From positions 32,001-96,000 of the IMG/VR virus record IMGVR_UViG_3300047089_000152: a stretch of 64,000 nt of DNA. One strand, written 5' to 3'. Numbering within the stretch: the stretch's first letter is position 1; every line of letters begins with the position of its first letter. Of this stretch, positions 369 to 58,509 are shown piece by piece. The stretch comes from a virus. Under the pieces are notes generated by a model. The model was given only the letters and a program-made list of their open reading frames with translations, was not told the origin of the DNA and did not search any database. The translations under genes were made by a program, and so were the position numbers.

Positions 369-1396
369 ATATCCCCTCGACCGCCGAACTTCTACTCCGC
401 GCCGACTGGGCGCGTCCCCGGTCTCGGCAGACAGCGCTGGGCATGTCCGACCTCGGTGGGTGTCGTCGCCGTGCCGGATATCAGCTGGCCGGTTACCAGC
501 CGGAGAAACCAAGCGGATCAATTCAAGCTGTCATTGGCACGGCAGTGCATGATGCCGTGGATGCCGCGCTGAAAAAGATGCGCGAAGACGGGATCATTCC
601 CGCCGACTCGGTCATCAACGAGGCCGTCTCGTTTGGTGGCGTCGTAGGGCACCCGGACCTTTATGTGGACGGGGTACTCAGGGATGTTAAAACTCTCGGG
701 TATGGGGCGCAGCTGGCGAACGCGAAGCTGTACGGTCCGAAGCGGCAGCATCTGTGGCAAGTCATGACGTACGCCGCAGCCTGTATCCTCGCGGACCGGC
801 CGGTGCGCACTGTCCAGATTGATTACCTTGTCAGGGATTCCGGTGAAAGCTGGATATGGGAAGGGCCGTTCGATTTCGGGCAGGTCCGCGAGGCGATGCA
901 GTGGCTGGAATCGGTGCGGGAAACGCCGCTGGAATTCCTCGCCAGGGATTACGCTCCAGATTCGGCGACATGCAAAGGCTGCCCGTTCTTCAACGCCTGC
1001 TGGGACGGCCACGTGGTCGACCGTGACGAACGATCCGTCCTGCTAGTCACCGATGACGACGCGGTGCAGTGGGCGCTGCGACTGGAAGTAGCCCGGGAAC
1101 GGATCAAGACGGCGAAAGAAGAAGAAGCCCTGTCGAAAGGCGCGCTCGACGGGCTACGCCCTAACGACAAGGGAAAGGCGGAAATAAAATTGACTGGCTA
1201 CCCGAAGACTCTGCGCTGGACAGTCACTACGCGGAAGAATCTGGACACCGAAGTAATAAAGCAAGATTATGCGAGGGGCGGCATTATGCCGCCCCTCGCA
1301 TCGAGCGAAAGCGTCCGGTTGGAGTTGCTCGCGCCGCGGGATGAGGATTTATCCTGCCTATCCAATCCCGGCCGCTCCATGCCAAGCCATGCCTAG
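365..1396 (+). CDS. Cas4-like / RecB-family PD-(D/E)XK exonuclease
   Basis: GTxxH, GHPD..DVKT, QxxxY motifs; Fe-S cysteines (GGCRR ... CKGCPFFNAC); GTG365 start. Confidence 0.85.
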   Translation: MNIPSTAELLLRADWARPRSRQTALGMSDLGGCRRRAGYQLAGYQPEKPSGSIQAVIGTAVHDAVDAALKKMREDGIIPADSVINEAVSFGGVVGHPDLYVDGVLRDVKTLGYGAQLANAKLYGPKRQHLWQVMTYAAACILADRPVRTVQIDYLVRDSGESWIWEGPFDFGQVREAMQWLESVRETPLEFLARDYAPDSATCKGCPFFNACWDGHVVDRDERSVLLVTDDDAVQWALRLEVARERIKTAKEEEALSKGALDGLRPNDKGKAEIKLTGYPKTLRWTVTTRKNLDTEVIKQDYARGGIMPPLASSESVRLELLAPRDEDLSCLSNPGRSMPSHA

Positions 1397-1413
1397 CCGC
1401 GCCTATCCCTTGC
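1351..1413 (-). ncRNA. satellite pentamer guide array S1 (11 pentamers + GGCA)
   Basis: minus strand GCAAG GGATA GGCGC GGCTA GGCAT GGCTT GGCAT GGAGC GGCCG GGATT GGATA GGCA; TATGAT -10 at 1426-1431(-). Confidence 0.7.
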
Positions 1414-1462
1414 TACGTTCATGGTATCATATAGGACGGGGAACGCACAAAAGGAGGTCGCT

Positions 1463-9878: not shown

Positions 9879-10706
9879 ATGGCCACCTACAAGACGCTGC
9901 GCAGTGACGACCCGAAAGTCCAGCAAGCCCGGCAACGCGCCGGGAAAATCGTCGGGGCGATGAACGACCTCGCCGCCCTCGTCCAACAGTCGTGGGACGC
10001 GAAAGACTGGCGCGTCCTCGGCTATGACTCCTGGCAGAGTTACACGGTCGGGGAGTTCGGCCACGGCGACACCGCCATCAAAGCCCGGCAGGTCATCGTG
10101 TCCATGCTCCGAGGAACCGGACTGTCCCAACGCGCCATCGCCGCGGAGACCGGCGCGTCCGTCGCGACCGTCAACAACGACATTGCCGACCTGTCAACCG
10201 CACCCCCGGAGGGTGACCCTACGACGATCGACCGGCGACCCCGGCCGACTGTTCAGGAACCTGAACAGTCACTCAGAGTAACCGGGCTGGACGGTAGGAC
10301 ACAACCCGCCAGCAGAGGAGGCATGACAGGAGACCAGCGCAGAGAACGGGACCGGCTACTGCGGGCGCAAAGACGGCAAAGAGAAGCGGCCCTCCGCGAA
10401 ACCCACGCCGCCGACGCCGCCCGGCCGGTACCTGACATGATCCACGGTCACCCCGTGACCGTCACCTGCCCGATGTGCGTAGAACTGGCACGCCCAGCCC
10501 GCGAAGCACCCGTTGAACCACTAGCTGGACATTCCGTCGAAACCCGGCTTCGGCTGCTGTTCGCCGGGTTCCTCGACGGTCTCACCCCCGACCAGCTCAC
10601 CGCCCTGCACGACCACTGGGACGAGATCATGAACGAAACCGTCACAGACCGGATCACTAGCTGGGCCGCCGTCGGCCGTACCGTCGCGCAGGAAAGGGCA
10701 AGCTGA
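9879..10706 (+). CDS. HTH DNA-binding protein
   Basis: W..LGYDSW..Y...EFG and GLSQRAIAAETGASVATVNND. Confidence 0.7.
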   Translation: MATYKTLRSDDPKVQQARQRAGKIVGAMNDLAALVQQSWDAKDWRVLGYDSWQSYTVGEFGHGDTAIKARQVIVSMLRGTGLSQRAIAAETGASVATVNNDIADLSTAPPEGDPTTIDRRPRPTVQEPEQSLRVTGLDGRTQPASRGGMTGDQRRERDRLLRAQRRQREAALRETHAADAARPVPDMIHGHPVTVTCPMCVELARPAREAPVEPLAGHSVETRLRLLFAGFLDGLTPDQLTALHDHWDEIMNETVTDRITSWAAVGRTVAQERAS

Positions 10707-11125
10707 TGAACGGTCAGACTGTCCCCCGGCCCCGGCCGTGCGCGTCGTGTCCGTACCGTAGAGACGTGCCGTCCGGTGTGTGGGCCGCGGAAGAATATGA
10801 CAAGCTACCCCGCTACGACGGGGACACGGGTGAGCAGGCGATGGCCGGGGCGTTCGGCGTGTTCATGTGTCACCAGGCTGACGGGCACCTGTGTTCAGGT
10901 TGGGTAGCCGCCCACGACATGCAGCACAACCTGGCGATACGCATGGCCCGCGACGTGGACATGCCAGCGGTCCTGTCGTACACCACGGACGTGTCGGTGT
11001 TTGGTTCCGGTGCGGAAGCCGCGGCGCACGGCAAGGCCGACATCGAGACCCCGGGGCCGGAAGCTATGCGGACCGTGGAGAAGATCACCGTGGTACGCGG
11101 TAGGCGCGGGAAAGGGAAAGGATGA
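10706..11125 (+). CDS. DUF6283-like protein
   Basis: PCASCPYRRDVPSGVWA.EEY.KL..YD...F.CHQ....CSGW. Confidence 0.7.
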   Translation: MNGQTVPRPRPCASCPYRRDVPSGVWAAEEYDKLPRYDGDTGEQAMAGAFGVFMCHQADGHLCSGWVAAHDMQHNLAIRMARDVDMPAVLSYTTDVSVFGSGAEAAAHGKADIETPGPEAMRTVEKITVVRGRRGKGKG

Positions 11126-11520: not shown

Positions 11521-12186
11521 ATGCCACCACGCAAGACCACCACAGGCGGACCAGTCCAGCTCACCAGGCTGGCAGAAGAAGTCGCCCAAATCCACATCGC
11601 CGGGGCTACGCCACTTATTATTCATAAATGGTCGGAAAAGGCGCTCAACCAGATGCGGATCGCCCAGTCCGGGGCAATTAAGCCGCCCCGCGAACCCAAG
11701 AACGCCGAAGAAAACGCCCACGCGGCAACATACTGGGTCGACGTCGCCGAGACGATCCCCGGCATCCCCAGCGTCTCATTCAAGGCCGCCATGGTCGGAG
11801 CCTGCCGGTTCTTCGACGGCCTCCCCATGACGACAGCAAAATTGCTGTTCTTCGTCGACGGGGTCGTCAGCGAAGCCAAGGGCGACGCGCCAGCACGCGA
11901 CCTGCTCGTCCCGATTATCTCCGGCCCTGGGGAAATGCGGGAAGACACCCCGCGCAACGACAACGGAAACCCGGACCTCCGGTACAGGAATCAGTTCTTC
12001 CCGTGGAAAGCCGTACTCAACGTGCGGTTCATGCCCGCGAAGATCGCCCCCGAATCCGTCATCGCGCTAGCTGACGCCGCCGGTCGTGGCGGTGTCGGAG
12101 AATGGCGTCCATCCGCACCGAAAAGCGCGACTGGCACATACGGCCAGTTTCGTGTCATCACCCGGAAGGAATGGGAGTCGGCCTAA
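11521..12186 (+). CDS. stand-alone Cas7/RAMP-like RNA-binding protein (Vipr-like effector)
   Basis: I.G.TPLIIH start, PGIPSVSFKAAM..AC, C-terminal Gly-rich loop GRGGVGEWRP...GTYGQFRV; flanked by guide arrays. Confidence 0.8.
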   Translation: MPPRKTTTGGPVQLTRLAEEVAQIHIAGATPLIIHKWSEKALNQMRIAQSGAIKPPREPKNAEENAHAATYWVDVAETIPGIPSVSFKAAMVGACRFFDGLPMTTAKLLFFVDGVVSEAKGDAPARDLLVPIISGPGEMREDTPRNDNGNPDLRYRNQFFPWKAVLNVRFMPAKIAPESVIALADAAGRGGVGEWRPSAPKSATGTYGQFRVITRKEWESA

Positions 12187-12187
12187 A

Positions 12188-12745
12188 ATGGCGACCATCA
12201 CCGTCGAACAGCAGTGGGCGTTCAAATCGGGTGCGCGTGTCCCGGGTGGCGTCCACGCCGAGGATGTGGTGCGTGAGAAGGAACAGATGGAAGACCACCT
12301 GGGCCGCCTCGCCACCACGGAGGAAGCCGCGGAAATGGTCCTCCGCTGGCCTACCAAGTACAAGGCGCACCGGGCGTTCGCACCGGCAACCGAGAAAGAA
12401 GCACTCCACGAAGCAGTGGTACGCGGTGTTCGGAGCGCCTGGAGTTCCGTGATTCAGGTCGACGTCGAAATCACCGAGGTCACCAACCGGATTTCCGGTG
12501 ATATCGAGATCGCAACCAGGCGTGTCGACGCACCCGAAGTGAGATGGTTTCACGCCGTGCCAGCACGCGTCGGCGACACGCAACGAGTTTATGACTCGTT
12601 GCCGAATATCGCAGCCGATGCTGACAAGGAAGCGGCGCTGTCCGAAGATCTCGCCACGCAAGCACGCAACTTCTCCGCAAAAGTAGCCAGCGTCACTGGC
12701 GAGCTGGCGCGGTTGCACAAGTTGCGCAGCACCGCCGGAAATTAG
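12188..12745 (+). CDS. accessory protein of the RAMP/array locus, function unknown
   Basis: starts 2 nt after the RAMP stop, ends immediately before the array leader hairpin. Confidence 0.7.
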   Translation: MATITVEQQWAFKSGARVPGGVHAEDVVREKEQMEDHLGRLATTEEAAEMVLRWPTKYKAHRAFAPATEKEALHEAVVRGVRSAWSSVIQVDVEITEVTNRISGDIEIATRRVDAPEVRWFHAVPARVGDTQRVYDSLPNIAADADKEAALSEDLATQARNFSAKVASVTGELARLHKLRSTAGN

Positions 12746-12790
12746 ACCACCAGGTTCCGGCCGGGGAAACTCGGCCGGAACCTGGTCGGT
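12746..12790 (+). other. array leader hairpin with GAAA tetraloop
   Basis: ACCAGGTTCCGGCCG-GG-GAAA-CT-CGGCCGGAACCTGGT: 15 perfect pairs plus G.U and G-C. Confidence 0.85.
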
Positions 12791-12794
12791 AAGG

Positions 12795-14073
12795 GGAGTG
12801 GAGGGGCAGGGACTGTCGTGGCAAGGAACGGCAGGGCACGGAGTGGATTGGCAGGATAGGCTCGGCGCGGCCAGGCGGGGAGCGTTTCGGAGTGGCATGG
12901 ATTGGCTGGGACTGGCAGTATCGGATCGCAGTGGTCAGGGTAGGCAAGGCCCGGCCAGGCGGGGCTCGGTATGGCCTGCACTGGCGGGGAACGCAATGGA
13001 GTGGCAGGACCGGTGTGGAATGGCTGGGACGGGAACGGCGCGGTAGGGAATGGAGTGGCAGGAACGGTGGGGCCGGGCGCGGCGCGGCTAGGCTCGGCGC
13101 GGACGGGCATGGATTGGCTGGGCAGGACAGGATCGGAGAGCAGGGGGCTGGCGCGGCATGGCACGGAGAGGCAGGAGAGGAACGGTCGGGACAGGAGCGG
13201 CAAGGAGCGCACCGGCAGGCAGCGGCAGGGAATGGCATGGAACGGACTGGATTGGCAGGACAGGACCGGCATGGCCAGGAGGGGCATGTCCTGGAATGGA
13301 ATGGCAGGAATGGCTGGGTACGGCGGGGCCGGGCGAGCATTGGACAGGACCGGCAGTCGCGGAAGGGCTCGGCAGGGACCGGATTGCAGCGGCGAGGATG
13401 GGCTAGGCAGGAGCGGAACGGCAGGGCATGGCCTGGATCGGAGCGGCTGGGCAGGATAGGCATGGATCGGCCTGGGTAGGCAAGGAGGGGCTGGGACGGG
13501 ACCGGATTGGCAGGGCAGCAGTGGAGAGGCAAGCCGTGCAATGGCGGGGCGGGGCGTGGCATGGACTGGACCGGCAGGACTGGACTGGACTGGATTGGAG
13601 AGCAGGGCAGTGGCAGGGATCGTAGGGGTTCGGACGGGCAGGTTAGGCTTGGACGGGCTAGGCGTGGCATGGGCCGGCAAGGAACGGCTCGGAGCGGCAG
13701 GGATTGGCACGGCTCGGAGTGGCAGGACCGGACGGGTACGACGTGGCGTGGCTGGCATTGGCAAGGACTGGCAGGAGTGGATTGGCAGGGCCGGGCTTGG
13801 CATGGCGTGGCTGGGAATGGCGTGGCAGGACAGGTGGGGCTTGGCGGGCCGGGGATCGGCACGGATGGGCATGGCATGGCCCGGTAGGGCATGGCAGCAT
13901 TGGACTGGACCGGACCGGCAAGGCTTGGCTTGGCTGGGATCGGATGGGAACGGCAGGAGCGGAGCGGACTGTCGTGGCATGGCATGGCCTGGCGTGGCGC
14001 GGATCGGACGGGCAGGATAGGTCGGGCGTGGAATGGAACGGACGGGCTGGGCATGGAACGGCAGGATAGGAGT
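12795..14073 (+). ncRNA. main guide array: 237 GG(C/A)-NN pentamers in 21 GGCA-delimited segments
   Basis: 237x5 + 21x4 = 1269 nt accounts exactly for 12795-14063, then GGATA GGAGT; segments of 8-17 pentamers. Confidence 0.85.
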
Positions 14074-14279
14074 GACCCGCAGGGCTACTGTCGGGGTGGG
14101 CCGCGTGCCCCGGCAGAAGTTCGGCGGTGGATGATCTTGTGCTCGTGCGGCCATCCTGCGGTCGAGCATGACCTGAACCGTTCGGAGACTAAGCGAACAG
14201 TTTGCCTGACCACCGAACGGACTACGAAATGTCCGTGCGTGCTATATTCACCAGACCTTCGTGATACACTAGAGGTACA

Positions 14280-15149
14280 ATGAACGAGACCATAGAACGA
14301 GAAGACCGCAGGGCCGTCACCGCGCTCACCTCCGGGGAAAACGCCACGAAGGTCACCGTCAAAACAAGCGACGGCAACTACGAAGAACGACAGCTAACCG
14401 TCCACGGGCTCGCACGGCTGATTCCCGTGATCGCACTGGGCGACATGGACCGGCTGATAGACGACGTGCGCGAACACGGCGTCCTCGAACCCCTGATCAT
14501 GTTCCAGGGACAAGTCCTTGACGGACGCAACCGGCTCGCCGTAGCTTCGGTCGTCGGCGTACCCGTGCAGCTCACCGAATTCGACGGAGACGAAGCCGCA
14601 GCCAGAAACTTCGTCTGGTCCGCGAACGCTGCGAGGCGGCACCTGTCCGTCCCCCAGATCGCGCTGGCCGCTGAACGGTTCGGTTTCGTCGACGCCGCCA
14701 AAGCCGAAGCAGGCCCCGACGACCCCAACCTGGATATCCGCTCGACGGTCGCACCATGGGCGCGAATCGCCGCGCGAAAGGTCGGTGCGATCACCCCGGC
14801 TACACTGGAACGGTTCCAGCAAGCCAGGATCCCCGAGGCACCCGACACGATGCGCCGGGTCGATTCCGGTGAGATCCGCCGGGTCGACGTCGCGGTCAAG
14901 GAAGCGGTCGCGGAGCGGACCGTGCTCACCGGCCGTCTCATCCAGGTTCCACCCCCGGTTGCGCGTACCGCGTGGGACCGGCTGGGCTGCGCGCGGGGTG
15001 ACGTTCTCGCCGCGGAACGCGCCATCCTGGCAGGGGACTGGGGTGGGATGGAAAGGGACCAGTTCGCTGTCCGCGCCCGTGAAATCCAGGGAGCCCTGAT
15101 CAGGATTCAGAATTTGTATCGTTATGGATCGGGCGGCAGGACCGGTTAG
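14280..15149 (+). CDS. ParB N-terminal domain protein
   Basis: L..DVREHGVLEPL...GQVLDGRNRL...SANAARRHLS. Confidence 0.8.
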   Translation: MNETIEREDRRAVTALTSGENATKVTVKTSDGNYEERQLTVHGLARLIPVIALGDMDRLIDDVREHGVLEPLIMFQGQVLDGRNRLAVASVVGVPVQLTEFDGDEAAARNFVWSANAARRHLSVPQIALAAERFGFVDAAKAEAGPDDPNLDIRSTVAPWARIAARKVGAITPATLERFQQARIPEAPDTMRRVDSGEIRRVDVAVKEAVAERTVLTGRLIQVPPPVARTAWDRLGCARGDVLAAERAILAGDWGGMERDQFAVRAREIQGALIRIQNLYRYGSGGRTG

Positions 15150-15207
15150 GACGGGCTAGGAATGGCTGGGCTGGGCATGGACTGGAATGGCAGGAATGGA
15201 ATGGCTA
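15135..15207 (+). ncRNA. satellite guide array S3
   Basis: GGCA + 10 pentamers (15139-15188) + GGCA + 3 pentamers; overlaps the ParB stop and the next ATG. Confidence 0.8.
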
Positions 15208-29652: not shown

Positions 29653-30708
29653 TCAGTGTTCCAGGAGTTCCAGCAGGCGTTTCGCGTTGCTGGTGAACGT
29701 GCGGTCAGCGATAGCCTCACGCGCTTTGTATGCCGCCTGTTCCCGTTCACTATCGTGGGCGAGCCACCAGCGGATCTGATCCCCTGCCTCTTCCGGGCTG
29801 GAGAACGTAGGGAGCATGTCCAGCACCGAATCCCCCTCCGCGCGGGGATCGCGGAGGTAGAAAAGCCCGCACGCCGCTTGTTCCACCTCACGGGGCCCCA
29901 TCGCCCACGGGACGGCGGTGCTGTCAGCGTCCGCGTCGTCGTATTCGCGGCGGTAAAAGTTGATGCCGCACTTCGCGTTGCGGTACACCTCGGCCACTTC
30001 GCTGTTGTCGACACAGTCGTCAATGTCATGGCCCATGAACCTGCGCAGCGGAGACTTCGACGCCCCCGGCCAGCAGCCCCCCAGCAGCACGTCCAGGCCG
30101 TCCAGGTTCATCCGCTCGAAAAAGTCGATGCGGGACTGGAACCCCGTCCCGATGAACGCCAGGTCCGCCGCGAGGTCCACGTTGACAGGGCCCGTGCGAG
30201 GGTAATGCACGGAAGGCCGGTACGCGTGCGGCGCATACTCCGCGACGGCACCTAGCTCCCGGTACTGCTCAATGTTCACCGGGTCGTTCAGCAAGACGAT
30301 GTCGCTGCATTCCGCGCGTTCCAGCTGCATCTTTTCCTGGTACGGCGACTCGGTGGCGAGCAGGACAACTTTCATCCGCCGCTGCTGAAGCAGGGCCATC
30401 AGCCCCGGGGTGACGAAGAAACCGGAAACGAAAATAACCGCGTCTGGCCAGAACGTGAAAGCCGCATGAGAGATGCCCTGCATCGCCATGCGCAGCGCGT
30501 CCTCGTCGTTCATCGCCCGGCGTACCAGCGGGTGCCCCGACTCGTCCACGTCCCCCGTGGAAATCAAAGCATGACCGTAAAATTGTATACGATCATCAGA
30601 ATTAAAACTGGCAACTTCACACCCAAGCTCCCGCAGCGCCTCACACCAACCGTCATGCACATCAGCCACAGAAAAATTTGGGCCTGGATGTACCACTAGT
30701 ATGCGCAC
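29653..30708 (-). CDS. glycosyltransferase (CgeB-like, GT-B)
   Basis: FIGTGF.SR...VYRNAKCGIN...R.VE.AACG...RT; GTG30708. Confidence 0.75.
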   Translation of the reverse strand: MRILVVHPGPNFSVADVHDGWCEALRELGCEVASFNSDDRIQFYGHALISTGDVDESGHPLVRRAMNDEDALRMAMQGISHAAFTFWPDAVIFVSGFFVTPGLMALLQQRRMKVVLLATESPYQEKMQLERAECSDIVLLNDPVNIEQYRELGAVAEYAPHAYRPSVHYPRTGPVNVDLAADLAFIGTGFQSRIDFFERMNLDGLDVLLGGCWPGASKSPLRRFMGHDIDDCVDNSEVAEVYRNAKCGINFYRREYDDADADSTAVPWAMGPREVEQAACGLFYLRDPRAEGDSVLDMLPTFSSPEEAGDQIRWWLAHDSEREQAAYKAREAIADRTFTSNAKRLLELLEH

Positions 30709-30748: not shown

Positions 30749-30864
30749 GCATTGGAGGGGCATGGCATGGCACGGCCCGGAGTGCTGGGGTGGGGAACGG
30801 AATGGATGGGCAGGATAGATCCAGGTTGGTGCGCATCTTTTACAGGTGCGCACCAACCTGGATC
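30749..30864 (+). ncRNA. satellite guide array S4 plus 18-bp hairpin
   Basis: 12 pentamers 30749-30808, GGCA, GGATA; TGG-TAGGAT -10 at 30733-30741; inverted repeat 30818-30835/30847-30864. Confidence 0.8.
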
Positions 30865-31250
30865 AGAAATGAGCATCCCATGTATTGCTGGCCGGCGTAT
30901 TCGGTGAGTCCGTAGGTCATCACCTGCAATACGACCGTGAACTCCACCGCCCCGCCCAGGGTCGGGTCAGCCTGCACCGCCGCGTTGATGCTTTTAGTAC
31001 CGGACGTGGACACGTAGTCGTCGATTACGTCCTGGCCGGAAGCGTCGTTCGCGGCGGATACCAGCACGACGGCGAGGAGATTGACCTGGGTTTCGCCGTC
31101 CATCGTGATGCCGTAATTGACCGCTGGCCGGTTCGGGATTATGACCGCGCATGGCGGTATGACCTGCCCGGGTGCGATCGCGTGTACGTTCAGCCCGGTG
31201 GTGGATAGCCGGGTTGCGAGCGCGACCCTGATCGCTTTGACGTTAGCCAT
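30840..31250 (-). CDS. tail terminator / completion protein
   Basis: SI.AA..ADPTLGG motif; position. Confidence 0.7.
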   Translation of the reverse strand: MANVKAIRVALATRLSTTGLNVHAIAPGQVIPPCAVIIPNRPAVNYGITMDGETQVNLLAVVLVSAANDASGQDVIDDYVSTSGTKSINAAVQADPTLGGAVEFTVVLQVMTYGLTEYAGQQYMGCSFLIQVGAHL

Positions 31251-45506: not shown

Positions 45507-46469
45507 TTAACCATCGGGGTGCTCCCGGTACCAGTCAGACGTCAATGCCAGCCCAGCTTCAAAGCTGACCTGGGGTCCGTCGTAGCCCAGTGCCATGATC
45601 TTCCCGATGTCCGGTAGCCGCCGCGAAGGACTGCCCTGCGGGAGGATACCAGTCTCGATTTTGATCCGCCGGAAATACCGTTGCGCCACGGCGTAGGCCA
45701 CATCCGCGACAGTCCGCTCATCCATCGTGCCCAGGTGGTAGATCTCCGCGCCACGCGGCGACTTGTCCAGCAGCGTCACGAACTGTTCCACGCAGTCACT
45801 GATGTAGCAGAACGACCGGGTTTCCTCACCGCTACCCTGGATCAGGAACGGGACCGGGTCCAGGGTGGAATTCGCCAGGCCGTTCATGCGCTGGCAGAAC
45901 TCCGGTATCACATGCCGGGTGCCCATGTCCGGCCCGTAAATGTTGTGGGGCCGGACGATGATCAGCCGGTCCAGGATCCCGGTCCGCTGCCACGCCAGCG
46001 CGGCCAGCTCGGAAGCGATCTTCCCGCCCCCGTAGGAGTAGCGGGGGTTCAGCGGGTCAGGGACTACCAGCGGCACGGTCTCCGGGGTCGGCCACACCGG
46101 GGGTGTCTCGTACGCCTCGGAAGAGGAGACCAGCAGAAGTTCCCGGCAGCCCGTCACCCGGCACGCTTCCAGGACGTTCACGATGCCGCGCAACGCCACG
46201 TCCAGAACCTGCCGGGGTTCAGAATAGAAAGTCTGGGTGCCTTGCAGATACGCCAGGTGCAGGACCCGTTCACAGCCGTGCATCGCCCGGGTCACCACGT
46301 CAGGGTCGCGGACATCACCGTTGACGATCTCGCAGGCTACCCCCGCCAGGCGGTCCGGCCGGCCGCGGCTCATGTCATCCAGCACCACAACGTCGTGGCC
46401 GTCACCGGCAAGCCGCCGGGTCAAAGCCGAGCCGATGAAACCGGCACCGCCGGTAATCAGGTATCTCAT
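45507..46469 (-). CDS. NAD-dependent sugar epimerase/dehydratase
   Basis: TGGAGFIGS, SSSEAY, YGGGK, NIYGP. Confidence 0.9.
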   Translation of the reverse strand: MRYLITGGAGFIGSALTRRLAGDGHDVVVLDDMSRGRPDRLAGVACEIVNGDVRDPDVVTRAMHGCERVLHLAYLQGTQTFYSEPRQVLDVALRGIVNVLEACRVTGCRELLLVSSSEAYETPPVWPTPETVPLVVPDPLNPRYSYGGGKIASELAALAWQRTGILDRLIIVRPHNIYGPDMGTRHVIPEFCQRMNGLANSTLDPVPFLIQGSGEETRSFCYISDCVEQFVTLLDKSPRGAEIYHLGTMDERTVADVAYAVAQRYFRRIKIETGILPQGSPSRRLPDIGKIMALGYDGPQVSFEAGLALTSDWYREHPDG

Positions 46470-47257
46470 CCGGTCATGCTATCCGCACGGGGACGGAACC
46501 AGCCAGCCGGGCAACGTCTTTCATGGACCCACCGGGGCCACGTATCGTCCACGTCCACCGGGATCATGCCGCCCTGATACCCGAACCGGCCGAACGGGTT
46601 CGCACCGTCATGGTAGAACCGGTCATCTTCGTACCCAGCCGCCAAGTCGGGGTTGCATTCGACATGACAGTGCGCGTCCATCTTCGCGGCGATACTATCC
46701 CGGCCGCCCAGCCACGTCAGGTGGTGACCAGCATCGGGGATCACCGGGCCGCGGCTCCACGTGTCCCGACGCACCGACGACAAAGGCCCCGTAATACCGG
46801 CAGGGCACAGCGTGGACGTGCGCAGCGGCGCACCCCACAGCCAGTCGACCGCGAACATGCAGCAAGCCATTTCCAGGACACCCGTCCTGTGTTCTCCCAC
46901 CGCGCGCATCGCCGCGTAGTTCGGTATCTCATCGACGTCAGCCAGGATCAGCCAGTCATCAGCAGACGCCCCGTCCAGCCCAGCCCGGATAGCGTCACGC
47001 TGCGCAGCCTCACGGTCCATCGGGGCGGCCCCTGCCATCCCCGGGAGGCTGTCAGCGACCACGTGGACGATGCGGTCTTTCCACGGCGCGAACCGCTCCT
47101 TATTCGCCGCGTAAACGAGAGGTTTCGGGTGTCCCTGATGGTCGACCCTGGCCTCAACCAGGACGTGCCGGTAGATAGGCCAGTCTTCCATCTGCACCAG
47201 CCGGCATTCCAGCACGTCCAGCTCGTCGCGGAACAGGAACGTGTCCCAGATTTTCAC
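46466..47257 (-). CDS. glycosyltransferase family 17-like
   Basis: KIWDTF.F.DELD.LE.RL...G.PKP...RE..QR...DVDEIP. Confidence 0.75.
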   Translation of the reverse strand: MKIWDTFLFRDELDVLECRLVQMEDWPIYRHVLVEARVDHQGHPKPLVYAANKERFAPWKDRIVHVVADSLPGMAGAAPMDREAAQRDAIRAGLDGASADDWLILADVDEIPNYAAMRAVGEHRTGVLEMACCMFAVDWLWGAPLRTSTLCPAGITGPLSSVRRDTWSRGPVIPDAGHHLTWLGGRDSIAAKMDAHCHVECNPDLAAGYEDDRFYHDGANPFGRFGYQGGMIPVDVDDTWPRWVHERRCPAGWFRPRADSMTG

Positions 47258-47501
47258 GCCGCCCATGACCTCCGGTCGTGCCGGGCTACAGCGGGACCGC
47301 GCCCACCGGGACACGCACCGCGTGCACATGACGGTCGGGTCGTACGGGTCCAGTCGCGTCCATGCGCCACACCAGAAACAGTACCCCACGGCATAAGCCC
47401 TCCACGGACAGGCTGCCGGGGTCTAGGACAGCGGTTATGTATAACCCTGACCGTCGTTAGCATCATAGCGTCCCATGTGGTACGCTTAGAGTCCGAGCCG
47501 A

Positions 47502-47610
47502 GGCAGGATGGGATTGGCATGGCGCGGCAAGGTAGGGCTCGGATCGGCAAGGAATGGATAGGAACGGCAGGAGTGGCAGGGTGCGGTCCTCTCGTATCGG
47601 GAGGACCGCA
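47502..47610 (+). ncRNA. satellite guide array S5 plus hairpin
   Basis: GGCA, 12 pentamers 47506-47565, GGCA, 2 pentamers; TGG-TACGCT -10 at 47478-47486; hairpin 47582-47610. Confidence 0.85.
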
Positions 47611-47627
47611 TCTCCATTTTCCAACCG

Positions 47628-48911
47628 TCATCCTGCCGCCATATGTGAGTCGAAGAAATTATCCTTCGGGCCGATATGGGAACGGAACTTGTACTTACGG
47701 ATCAATTCCTCGCGGATTCCCACGAGGTCTTCTGAACTGAGTTCCGCCGTGCGGACCACGGAATCGGTACCCATGTTCTTTTGCCCGTAGGCGCCAAGTC
47801 CTTCTCCAGTAAATATCAGGTCGGTAGCTATTCCCTCGTCCATTTCCCGCCTGAATTCTGTGCCGCGATAAGGATAATAGATAGCAATCTGCGCATCATC
47901 TATCCCTGACGTGCAGATGAACCGTTCAGTCTCCGCGATCGTAGCGCGTGTCTCGCCGGGTAGCCCGATCATCACGAATGCTTTCACGGTGATGCCCGCA
48001 TCCTTGCAGTACCGGACACAATCGTAATTCTGCGTGGCGGTTGTCTTCTTATCCATCCGGTCTAGCATCTGCTGCGACCCGGATTCCGCACCAAACGCCA
48101 CCTCGACACACCCCGCATCGGCTAGCGCCGCGGCGAACTCCGCGGTCATGAATTTCGCGTGCACATTGCAGCGAAATCTTAGCCCGGAGCGCTTGAGTAG
48201 GTCCAGGTACGGCTGGCACTTCCCCAAATTAATTGCAAAAAGATCATCATACAAATACACGCCCTCATACCCGAGCGTCACGATGTCGTCCAGTTCGGCC
48301 TCGGCGTTGCCCAGCGAAGTCCACCTGGTCAGCGTCCGCGCGTCTTCACAGAACTTGCACGCCATCGGACAGCCCCGGCCGAGCATCATCGTGGTCGAGT
48401 TCAGCCCGGCCAGGGTGTACGAGTAGTTTTTCAGGAACCCAGGCTCACCCAGCCGGTCCGGGCGGGGCATCGCCGCTAGTTCCTGCCGGGGGATCTGGTC
48501 GTTGCTCATGACAGGAACCGTTTTGTTCTGCACGATGCCTGGCAGTGCCCGCTCCCCGTCGCCTGCCACCAGGTAGTCCCACAGCCCGGCCTGGTCGTCT
48601 GCGTTCATCTCCCGGCCGTAATGCCGGACGTGCGGGCCGCCTGCCACCAGAACTTTGGACGGCCAGCGGCTCCTGATCGCGCGGGCTATCCGGTTAGCCT
48701 CGGCGCGCTGCGGTGTCATCACCGAGACGCCTACTATGTCAGCGTCCGCGAACTGGTCCAGATCCTCGACGTCGTATTCGTCTACGACGCTGATCTTAGT
48801 ACCGGGGGCCTGCGCGGCCACCGCGGATTTCAGGTACAGCAGGCCGAGGGGCGGGTAGATACGGTCGTCGTCCAGGAACGGGGACCGGCAGGAAACCAGG
48901 GACAGTTTCAT
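47628..48911 (-). CDS. B12-binding radical SAM enzyme
   Basis: PPLGLLYL..GGPH; RGCPMACKFC; GAESGSQ; IGLPGET. Confidence 0.9.
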   Translation of the reverse strand: MKLSLVSCRSPFLDDDRIYPPLGLLYLKSAVAAQAPGTKISVVDEYDVEDLDQFADADIVGVSVMTPQRAEANRIARAIRSRWPSKVLVAGGPHVRHYGREMNADDQAGLWDYLVAGDGERALPGIVQNKTVPVMSNDQIPRQELAAMPRPDRLGEPGFLKNYSYTLAGLNSTTMMLGRGCPMACKFCEDARTLTRWTSLGNAEAELDDIVTLGYEGVYLYDDLFAINLGKCQPYLDLLKRSGLRFRCNVHAKFMTAEFAAALADAGCVEVAFGAESGSQQMLDRMDKKTTATQNYDCVRYCKDAGITVKAFVMIGLPGETRATIAETERFICTSGIDDAQIAIYYPYRGTEFRREMDEGIATDLIFTGEGLGAYGQKNMGTDSVVRTAELSSEDLVGIREELIRKYKFRSHIGPKDNFFDSHMAAG

Positions 48912-54199: not shown

Positions 54200-54556
54200 T
54201 CAGGATTTCCTGGCGGGCCGGGCCTTATTCATAGATTTCGCGGGCTTTTTAGCCGCGGGCTTAGCCGCAGCAGGCTTCGCTTCGGCAGCAGGCTTCGCGG
54301 TCTTCGCGGCAGCTGAATCGCCCTTACCCTGCGAGGATGGCAACTCCGGGTATTTCCGACGGACCGCTGCCTGAACTTTTGCCTTCTCCGCAGGCGTCCC
54401 ATTCGCCGCAACTCGTGACAGGGCGTTAGCGCCCCGTGCCTTAGAGTTAATAGGGTATGCGTCAGCACCACCAGGACCACCACCAGGCAGCGCATACGAC
54501 CCAGCCGGCGCGGCAGTATTAGGCGCAGGCTTACCGGTCTTCTTCCTCGGTGGCAT
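54200..54556 (-). CDS. small basic head-region protein
   Basis: YPI..ARGANALSRV...V.RKYP plus Lys/Ala tail; GGGAG RBS. Confidence 0.7.
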   Translation of the reverse strand: MPPRKKTGKPAPNTAAPAGSYALPGGGPGGADAYPINSKARGANALSRVAANGTPAEKAKVQAAVRRKYPELPSSQGKGDSAAAKTAKPAAEAKPAAAKPAAKKPAKSMNKARPARKS

Positions 54557-54575: not shown

Positions 54576-54685
54576 GGTATGGAGGGGTGCGGCTTGGCGT
54601 GGCTTGGCGGGGCGCGGCGGGGATTGCATTGGATTGGATTGGCAGGAACGTCACTGACCTGCACCTACGCGGTGCAGGTCAGTGA
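54576..54685 (+). ncRNA. satellite guide array S6 plus 15-bp hairpin
   Basis: 13 pentamers 54576-54640, GGCA, GGAAC; TATAAT at 54556-54561; inverted repeat 54651-54665/54671-54685. Confidence 0.85.
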
Positions 54686-58453: not shown

Positions 58454-58509
58454 GGATAGGAGCGGCAGGGCTTGGCCTGGAGAGGATCGGCTGGGATTGG
58501 ATTGGCAGG
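58454..58509 (+). ncRNA. satellite guide array S7
   Basis: 10 pentamers 58454-58503, GGCA GG; TGG-TACACT-GTAGGTAC promoter 58430-58446. Confidence 0.8.

Follow-up and report, generated by a model that had tools for sequence, protein, structure and literature searches.

VIPR is a CRISPR-like DNA silencer, published in 2026, that combines a RAMP protein, Vipr, with RNAs made of 9-16 GGY/NN units (bioRxiv 10.64898/2026.04.26.720920). The NN dinucleotides pair with DNA, one target base, usually the wobble, is skipped, and the effect is the transcriptional silencing of competing phages (bioRxiv 10.64898/2026.04.26.720920). The skipped target base is flipped into a protein pocket (bioRxiv 10.64898/2026.04.26.720927). 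For the third base of the unit, the pocket of the solved type II Vipr is reported to exclude purines (bioRxiv 10.64898/2026.04.26.720927). Targets were called in these papers at a threshold of 80% NN match (bioRxiv 10.64898/2026.04.26.720920, methods), and solo vrRNAs have been found to match their own genome less well than non-self sequences (bioRxiv 10.64898/2026.10.15.759431, section 8). In the VIPR papers, the system is described mostly from enterobacterial and Pseudomonas phages, with targets that lie outside the carrier genome.

The locus described here, S5, is carried by a high-GC, soil-type phage, represented by a virus record of 104,150 bp with 63.6% GC. The window, the whole stretch of 64,000 nucleotides that was analysed, comprises bases 32001-96000 of this record, and positions below are those of the window unless stated otherwise. 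A megablast search of GenBank phages returned no relative of this phage, and the sole match at the protein level was a weak one to Streptomyces phage SF3. Judged by its parts, S5 is a predicted solo vrRNA gene of a VIPR-positive phage.

The VIPR machinery of the carrier phage

A vipr locus is present in the window, with the following features:

11521-12186, plus strand: vipr, a 221-aa Cas7-fold RAMP protein (AF2 model and Foldseek)
12188-12745, plus strand: candidate vap accessory gene between vipr and the array, assigned by position alone, with no family found
12785-14079, plus strand: main staggered array of vrRNAs, with 21 guides (8-17 pentamers per guide), GGCA tetramers between them and 0 indels

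The vipr open reading frame has 607 homologues and falls into no Pfam family. Its AF2 model (pLDDT 85.9) has the fold of a RAMP protein: the top Foldseek matches listed are mainly RAMP backbone subunits (probability 1.0, E = 5e-6) from type III and type VII CRISPR effector complexes (Csm, Cmr, gRAMP). GG-period-5 arrays flank the vipr homologue in 28/33 viral loci, and contig P0002 carries a vipr that is 93% identical. No nuclease domain was found in the neighbours of vipr. Arrays across the genome, such as those at 12785-14079 and 47506-47565, consist of GGM units whose third base is A about as often as C. Since the type II pocket excludes purines, these purine third bases lead us to expect a different pocket, and this Vipr family should differ in that respect from the solved type II protein.

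When tested on the phage's own genome, on three relatives and on fetched loci totalling 1.26 Mb, the 21 guides of the main array gave background scores only. A self-match scan of the main arrays in 33 other vipr loci yielded four matches of 17/20, three of them in a single locus (L049). In this distant locus, two array windows (L049:9336-9390 and 10670-10720) match sequences located 1-2 kb downstream at 17/20, which are possible near-self targets beside a main array.

Organization of the S5 locus

S5 occupies a 238-nt gap between two late genes (46466-47389 and 47628-48911). It lies 35 kb from vipr, apart from the vipr-vap locus, and comprises the following elements, listed together with the gene that it adjoins:

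47460-47486, plus strand: putative promoter-like region, with GCATCAT at 47460-47466 and an extended -10, TGTGGTACGCT, at 47476-47486; predicted start at about 47493
47502-47505, plus strand: 5' GGCA tetramer, the punctuation mark of staggered arrays
47506-47565, plus strand: S5 guide of 12 GGMNN pentamers
47566-47578, plus strand: 3' handle GGCA-GGAGT-GGCA, after the guide
47579-47613, plus strand: terminal hairpin (stem of 16 bp, loop of 3 nt), after which comes CCATTTTCC, with a short T run
47628-48911, minus strand: B12-binding radical SAM gene, 427 aa (PF04055, 2.4e-18; PF02310, 8e-11)

The grammar of S5, with its GGCA marks and five-base units, is that of the main array. The pentamers of the guide are, in order, GGATG GGATT GGCAT GGCGC GGCAA GGTAG GGCTC GGATC GGCAA GGAAT GGATA GGAAC. 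The GG is constant and the 5-nt register perfect, while the third base is A in 6/12 units, C in 5/12 and T in 1/12. Guides in the main array and in other satellites likewise end in junctions of the GGCAGGA type, and a GGCAGG junction followed by a hairpin is common to the satellites, although the hairpin sequences differ. For the complete RNA of 139 nt, the predicted folding energy is -55.5 kcal/mol (z = -2.9). Neither Rfam nor tRNA scans gave a match in the window.

The extended -10 motif and the hairpin that the original prediction had attributed to S5 are both present; a simple scan with the sigma-70 consensus, however, calls no promoter here. The promoter assignment therefore rests on a motif common to other satellites: a GTGGTA-type -10 precedes satellites S4 and S7, the array upstream of vipr, and the satellites of two related contigs (L085 and L087). 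The radical SAM gene, in turn, belongs to a block of late and glycosylation genes on the minus strand.

The S5 guide matches the neighbouring radical SAM gene

Bases 4-5 of the 12 pentamers are identical to the 12 NN pairs that had been read from this guide in the original prediction. When this series is laid on the plus strand with every third base skipped, it matches a site located 0.66 kb from the array:

48226-48260, plus strand: own near-target site, codons 218-229 (VYLYDDLFAINL) of the radical SAM gene, 20/24 to the S5 guide

This two-in-three reading reproduces the 9/12 pairs and 20/24 nt claimed earlier for the site. In the minus-strand gene, the bases passed over fall on the wobble positions of codons 218-229. 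The code by which S5 is read is not new, being the published VIPR rule with its 1-nt skip (bioRxiv 10.64898/2026.04.26.720920).

In the 104-kb genome, both strands included, the runner-up site for the guide reaches 15/24. None of 3000 single-base shuffles scored 20/24, and pair-order shuffles reached at least 20/24 in 2/3000 cases in one run and in 0/500 in another. The guide NN bases and the site are both AT-rich, and the approximately 400 pentamers in the arrays of the genome bring in some look-elsewhere effect, which would be expected if an AT-rich series of dinucleotides merely happened to resemble an AT-rich patch. We consider such a coincidence extremely improbable. The boundaries of the guide were preset by the array grammar and the reading rule by the published code, the shuffles that so rarely reach the score genome-wide keep the composition, and the match lies close to the array. 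Furthermore, GC-rich orthologues match even better, and a local match of the same kind is found for three other satellites (see below). The gapped match between S5 and its own neighbouring gene is thus confirmed as exact and not due to chance. A protein-binding repeat RNA or DNA (a TRAP- or CsrA-like sponge, a centromere or a G-quadruplex) was also considered, and it was dropped in view of the outlying gapped match and the VIPR papers.

With 83% of its NN positions matched, the own site lies above the 80% threshold used for calling targets (bioRxiv 10.64898/2026.04.26.720920, methods), and guide and site lie in cis. Both points would suit a role in self-regulation, in which the S5 complex binds its own radical SAM gene and serves as an adjustable roadblock, timing or damping the expression of the downstream glycosylation genes. 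Nothing, however, would keep a regulatory guide from mutating to a perfect match, whereas S5 has four mismatches, and we regard this role as rather unlikely.

Orthologous alleles fit the guide better than the own allele

Radical SAM orthologues were found on 6 IMG/VR contigs at 75-78% identity, and 6/6 score 22/24 at the homologous codons. A search with a 21-base target pattern returned 6 matches in IMG/VR, on these same contigs, and 8 in JGI metagenomes, all of them orthologues at 22/24, and 0 among 185,579 GTDB species genomes. Every orthologous DNA in this set (14/14, that is 6 from IMG/VR and 8 from JGI, with the closest radical SAM relatives, P0122 and P0123, lying outside it) therefore beats the own copy on the S5 guide, with 22/24 against 20/24. 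The original prediction had named as its decisive test whether any orthologue would surpass the phage's own allele in its match to the guide, and it came through this comparison, as every orthologue found does so.

The difference can be traced to few changes. The motif YLFDDLFAI(N/H)L is carried by 58/58 other protein clusters, and among the 59 clusters the own copy alone has the F of VYLFDDLFAINL replaced by Y. At the NN positions, three changes separate the own allele from the common one: this F->Y replacement at pair 9 and Leu CTG->TTG switches at pairs 1 and 10. Two of the three reduce the match to S5 and 0 improve it. The unique F->Y change and the CTG->TTG switches thus bring the own site down to 20/24. 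At the sequence level, the S5 guide reads the invariant motif VYLFDDLFAINL, as present in relatives that score 22/24 and in whose DNA such arrays were not seen.

The two mismatches that remain against the orthologues fall at pair 1 and pair 10, and at these pairs the guide departs from all known alleles. A perfect allele, with I or M as third residue and Q or H as last, had been predicted for related phages, but none turned up in the IMG/VR pattern search or in the 58 other clusters. Since no I/M or Q/H allele is among those sampled, we read the guide as fitting the common allele with two mismatches. The claim that S5 encodes a non-self variant of its neighbour gene hence holds insofar as the orthologues fit better, and fails insofar as it called for an exactly matching allele: the exact 22-base pattern (pairs 2-12) has 0 matches in IMG/VR, and an allele at 23/24 or 24/24 was not found in any collection searched.

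The lack of such an allele in these collections would also be expected of a decaying relic, a former guide against the common allele that now drifts without present effect, and drift would explain the two mismatches to every known allele. S5, on the other hand, has retained a perfect register and a GGCA mark on either side, along with a strong hairpin and the promoter motif common to other satellites, and its match of 92% to the orthologues lies well above the published calling threshold. A relic is in our view quite unlikely. As for self-regulation, it is hard to reconcile with two findings: the own allele departs, towards a lower match, from a motif that does not vary among the 58 other clusters, and a better match is seen in relatives where such arrays were not found.

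The distribution of the cassette among relatives was also inspected. In the orthologous loci fetched from relatives, no array was found 3' of the gene, so that loci orthologous to the S5 site but free of the cassette exist. A period-5 GG scan of 5 related IMG/VR records gave no match in 3 of them and a single one-mismatch match in G002; in the fifth, G004, a G-rich tract with period 5 but another motif stands at the end of the contig. In G002, the one relative checked for this (97% complete), neither vipr nor its partner gene is present beside the ParB-like gene. G-rich period-5 tracts with GGTTC and GGGTT units also occur near contig ends at 103820-103879 of this genome (outside the window) and at G004:59519-59580; they do not follow the grammar of GGCA marks and are unlikely to be vrRNAs.

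These observations suggest that S5 is an allele-specific weapon against relatives that carry the F allele, kept beside the phage's own resistant allele, and we consider this reading likely.

The own site is shifted towards A and T

The segment 48226-48260 has the highest A+T content (27/35) of any 35-nt stretch in the 104-kb genome and coincides exactly with the footprint of S5. At this site, 9/11 skipped bases are A or T, compared with 0-3 in the GC-rich relatives, and GC3 is 3/12 across the site vs 0.73 for the gene as a whole. For the A/T figures of the own site, which was fixed beforehand by the guide, a binomial worked out by hand gives approximately 2e-4. Relative to the GC-rich orthologues, every G at a skipped position (in guide sense) has been lost from the own S5 site, and the same is seen in the own allele of L087, described below. 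The shift is not general, being absent from the own sites of S4 and S6.

Such recoding of the wobble towards A and T is not predicted if the skipped base is irrelevant. In both cases, the own S5 allele and the own L087 allele, the comparison suggests resistant alleles in which the protein motif cannot change and the skipped bases have been shifted to A/T. The flipped-out base may contribute to recognition in the protein pocket; alternatively, chronic near-cognate binding may leave a deamination footprint. A direct pairing between the third base of the guide unit and the skipped base was rejected, as the two agree at only 4/15 positions in the perfect L087 case. Under self-regulation, the same AT-richness would be welcome, as the most AT-rich 35 nt of the genome should unwind easily.

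Other satellites and a reciprocal case

Besides S5, the window contains further satellite arrays:

1342-1426, minus strand: satellite A, with the promoter, array and small-hairpin build of the other satellites
15139-15192, plus strand: satellite S3, 10 pentamers between GGCA marks; best match at 15099-15127, 3' end of the ParB-like gene, 18/20
30749-30812, plus strand: satellite S4, 12 pentamers and GGCA; best match at 31132-31166, tail terminator gene, 19/24 on the own copy
54576-54644, plus strand: satellite S6, 13 pentamers and GGCA; best match at 54504-54541, first codons of the neighbouring gene, 19/26 on the own copy
58454-58507, plus strand: satellite S7, with the promoter, array and small-hairpin build of the other satellites

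In 4/6 satellites, the best match in the whole genome is local: it lies 0.04-0.7 kb away and antisense to a coding sequence, with the wobble as the skipped base. For satellites A and S7, searches of this genome, of three relatives and of fetched loci totalling 1.26 Mb gave no target above background. The S4 guide finds 22/24 in its closest orthologue, on L085 (82% identity), vs 19/24 in the own copy, and for S6, relatives score up to 23/26 vs 19/26. The match of S3 to its own neighbour, at 18/20 and with no better foreign allele known, would fit self-regulation, which the lower match of the own than of the foreign alleles in S4, S6 and L087 argues against. The S3 site is situated about 10 nt upstream of its array, where it overlaps the array's own promoter region. 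In G002, the sole relative with the ParB-like gene, no S3 site could be aligned.

A reciprocal case was found in a related contig, L087 (IMG/VR 3300017791_000225), which carries a satellite of 16 pairs with the same promoter type in the slot taken here by S4:

L087:2044-2153 and L087:2518-2571, with 30329-30375 in this phage (guide sense plus): coordinates of the reciprocal case

The L087 guide matches this phage, two other contigs (L088 and G001) and G002 at 32/32. Its target in this phage, 30329-30375, spans codons 1-16 of the gene that lies downstream from the S4 slot. The own allele of L087 reaches only 26/32, having been recoded at two Leu codons, at one Ser codon family and at one residue, with its skipped bases shifted to A/T. 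The phage studied here is thus itself a predicted target of the L087 guide, and the L087 case provides direct sequence evidence for what appears to be allele-specific targeting between related phages with the own copy protected. On L085, the homologue of the L087 array (L085:1114-1173, minus strand) is broken by a 1-nt register shift and looks like a decaying guide, while the own allele of the L087-type target scores 30/32 and is partly A/T-shifted. That satellite arrays can decay in this manner is in line with the relic explanation discussed for S5.

Discussion

We propose that S5 would function as follows. Transcribed on the plus strand from its own extended -10, the RNA would end at the hairpin, and Vipr protomers supplied from the locus 35 kb away would coat the 12 GGMNN units. 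The GGM bases would be held by protein, leaving the 12 NN dinucleotides to pair with two bases in three of the DNA. In a mixed infection, the complex would bind the late-operon gene of the rival and block its transcription, whereas the linked own allele would be bound less, to the benefit of the carrier. Guide and resistant allele would be inherited together, like a poison with its antidote.

Several observations weigh on this weapon reading from either side. The gap between self and non-self amounts to only two bases and the own site still exceeds the 80% NN threshold; moreover, two guide positions mismatch every known allele, and A as third base stands against a pocket that excludes purines. 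In its favour, the lower match of the own than of the foreign copy is repeated in direction by S4 and S6, and L087 supplies the reciprocal case. A wider reading, in which related phages exchange linked poison-antidote cassettes and aim them at one another, and in which the skipped base may not be neutral, is put forward tentatively, as a possibility that we hold to be somewhat doubtful.

The alleles described here form natural pairs of putatively sensitive and resistant sequences, with F vs Y, switches of Leu and Ser codon families, and A/T vs G/C at the skipped base. Such pairs could be used to measure the tolerance of mismatches and any role of the skipped base. The linkage of weapon and antidote is also suggested to shape phage mosaicism at gene junctions.

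Comparable arrangements exist outside VIPR. Viral CRISPR mini-arrays are aimed at related viruses, and free-standing homing endonucleases of phages bring about marker exclusion; in the latter case, the weapon adjoins its target gene and the own copy is protected by polymorphisms. Like both of these, S5 would be a nucleic-acid-specific viral weapon against near relatives. Unlike them, it has no evident repeat-spacer structure or nuclease, and binding and silencing are expected of it.

The closest described system is the staggered-array VIPR (bioRxiv 10.64898/2026.04.26.720920, fig. S18). As in that system, a Cas7-fold RAMP protein adjoins arrays of five-base units, each with a constant GG and two variable bases, one base is skipped on the wobble, the 12 units of S5 fall within the published 9-16, and the predicted targets lie in competing phages. 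S5 differs in its distance of 35 kb from vipr, in having A as third base in half of its units where the published rule is GGY, and in its tail, a simple predicted hairpin in place of the pseudoknot of SUSP1. The VIPR papers report no self match of at least 80%, whereas S5 matches its own genome at 83%.

The solo vrRNAs of F5 satellites and SUSP1-like phages (bioRxiv 10.64898/2026.10.15.759431) resemble S5 in being stand-alone genes with their own expression signals. They are likewise wobble-aligned and aimed at close relatives, with a self-match below the match to rivals, avoiding autoimmunity. The published solos, however, occupy the former vipr locus of VIPR-null phages or reside in satellites, whereas S5 is found in a VIPR-positive phage. 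Their targets are vipr, other vrRNAs, satellites and host decoys, while S5 would read the allele that relatives carry of its neighbour gene. Its position sets S5 apart as well, since it is wedged 3' of an enzyme gene of the late operon that is itself the carrier's recoded version of the target. Solo vrRNAs with a low self-match are already in print, as are the code and the protein; what the cited VIPR papers do not contain is the arrangement seen here, in which guides are scattered among the late genes of a VIPR-positive phage and each one adjoins a recoded version of its target in the carrier itself.
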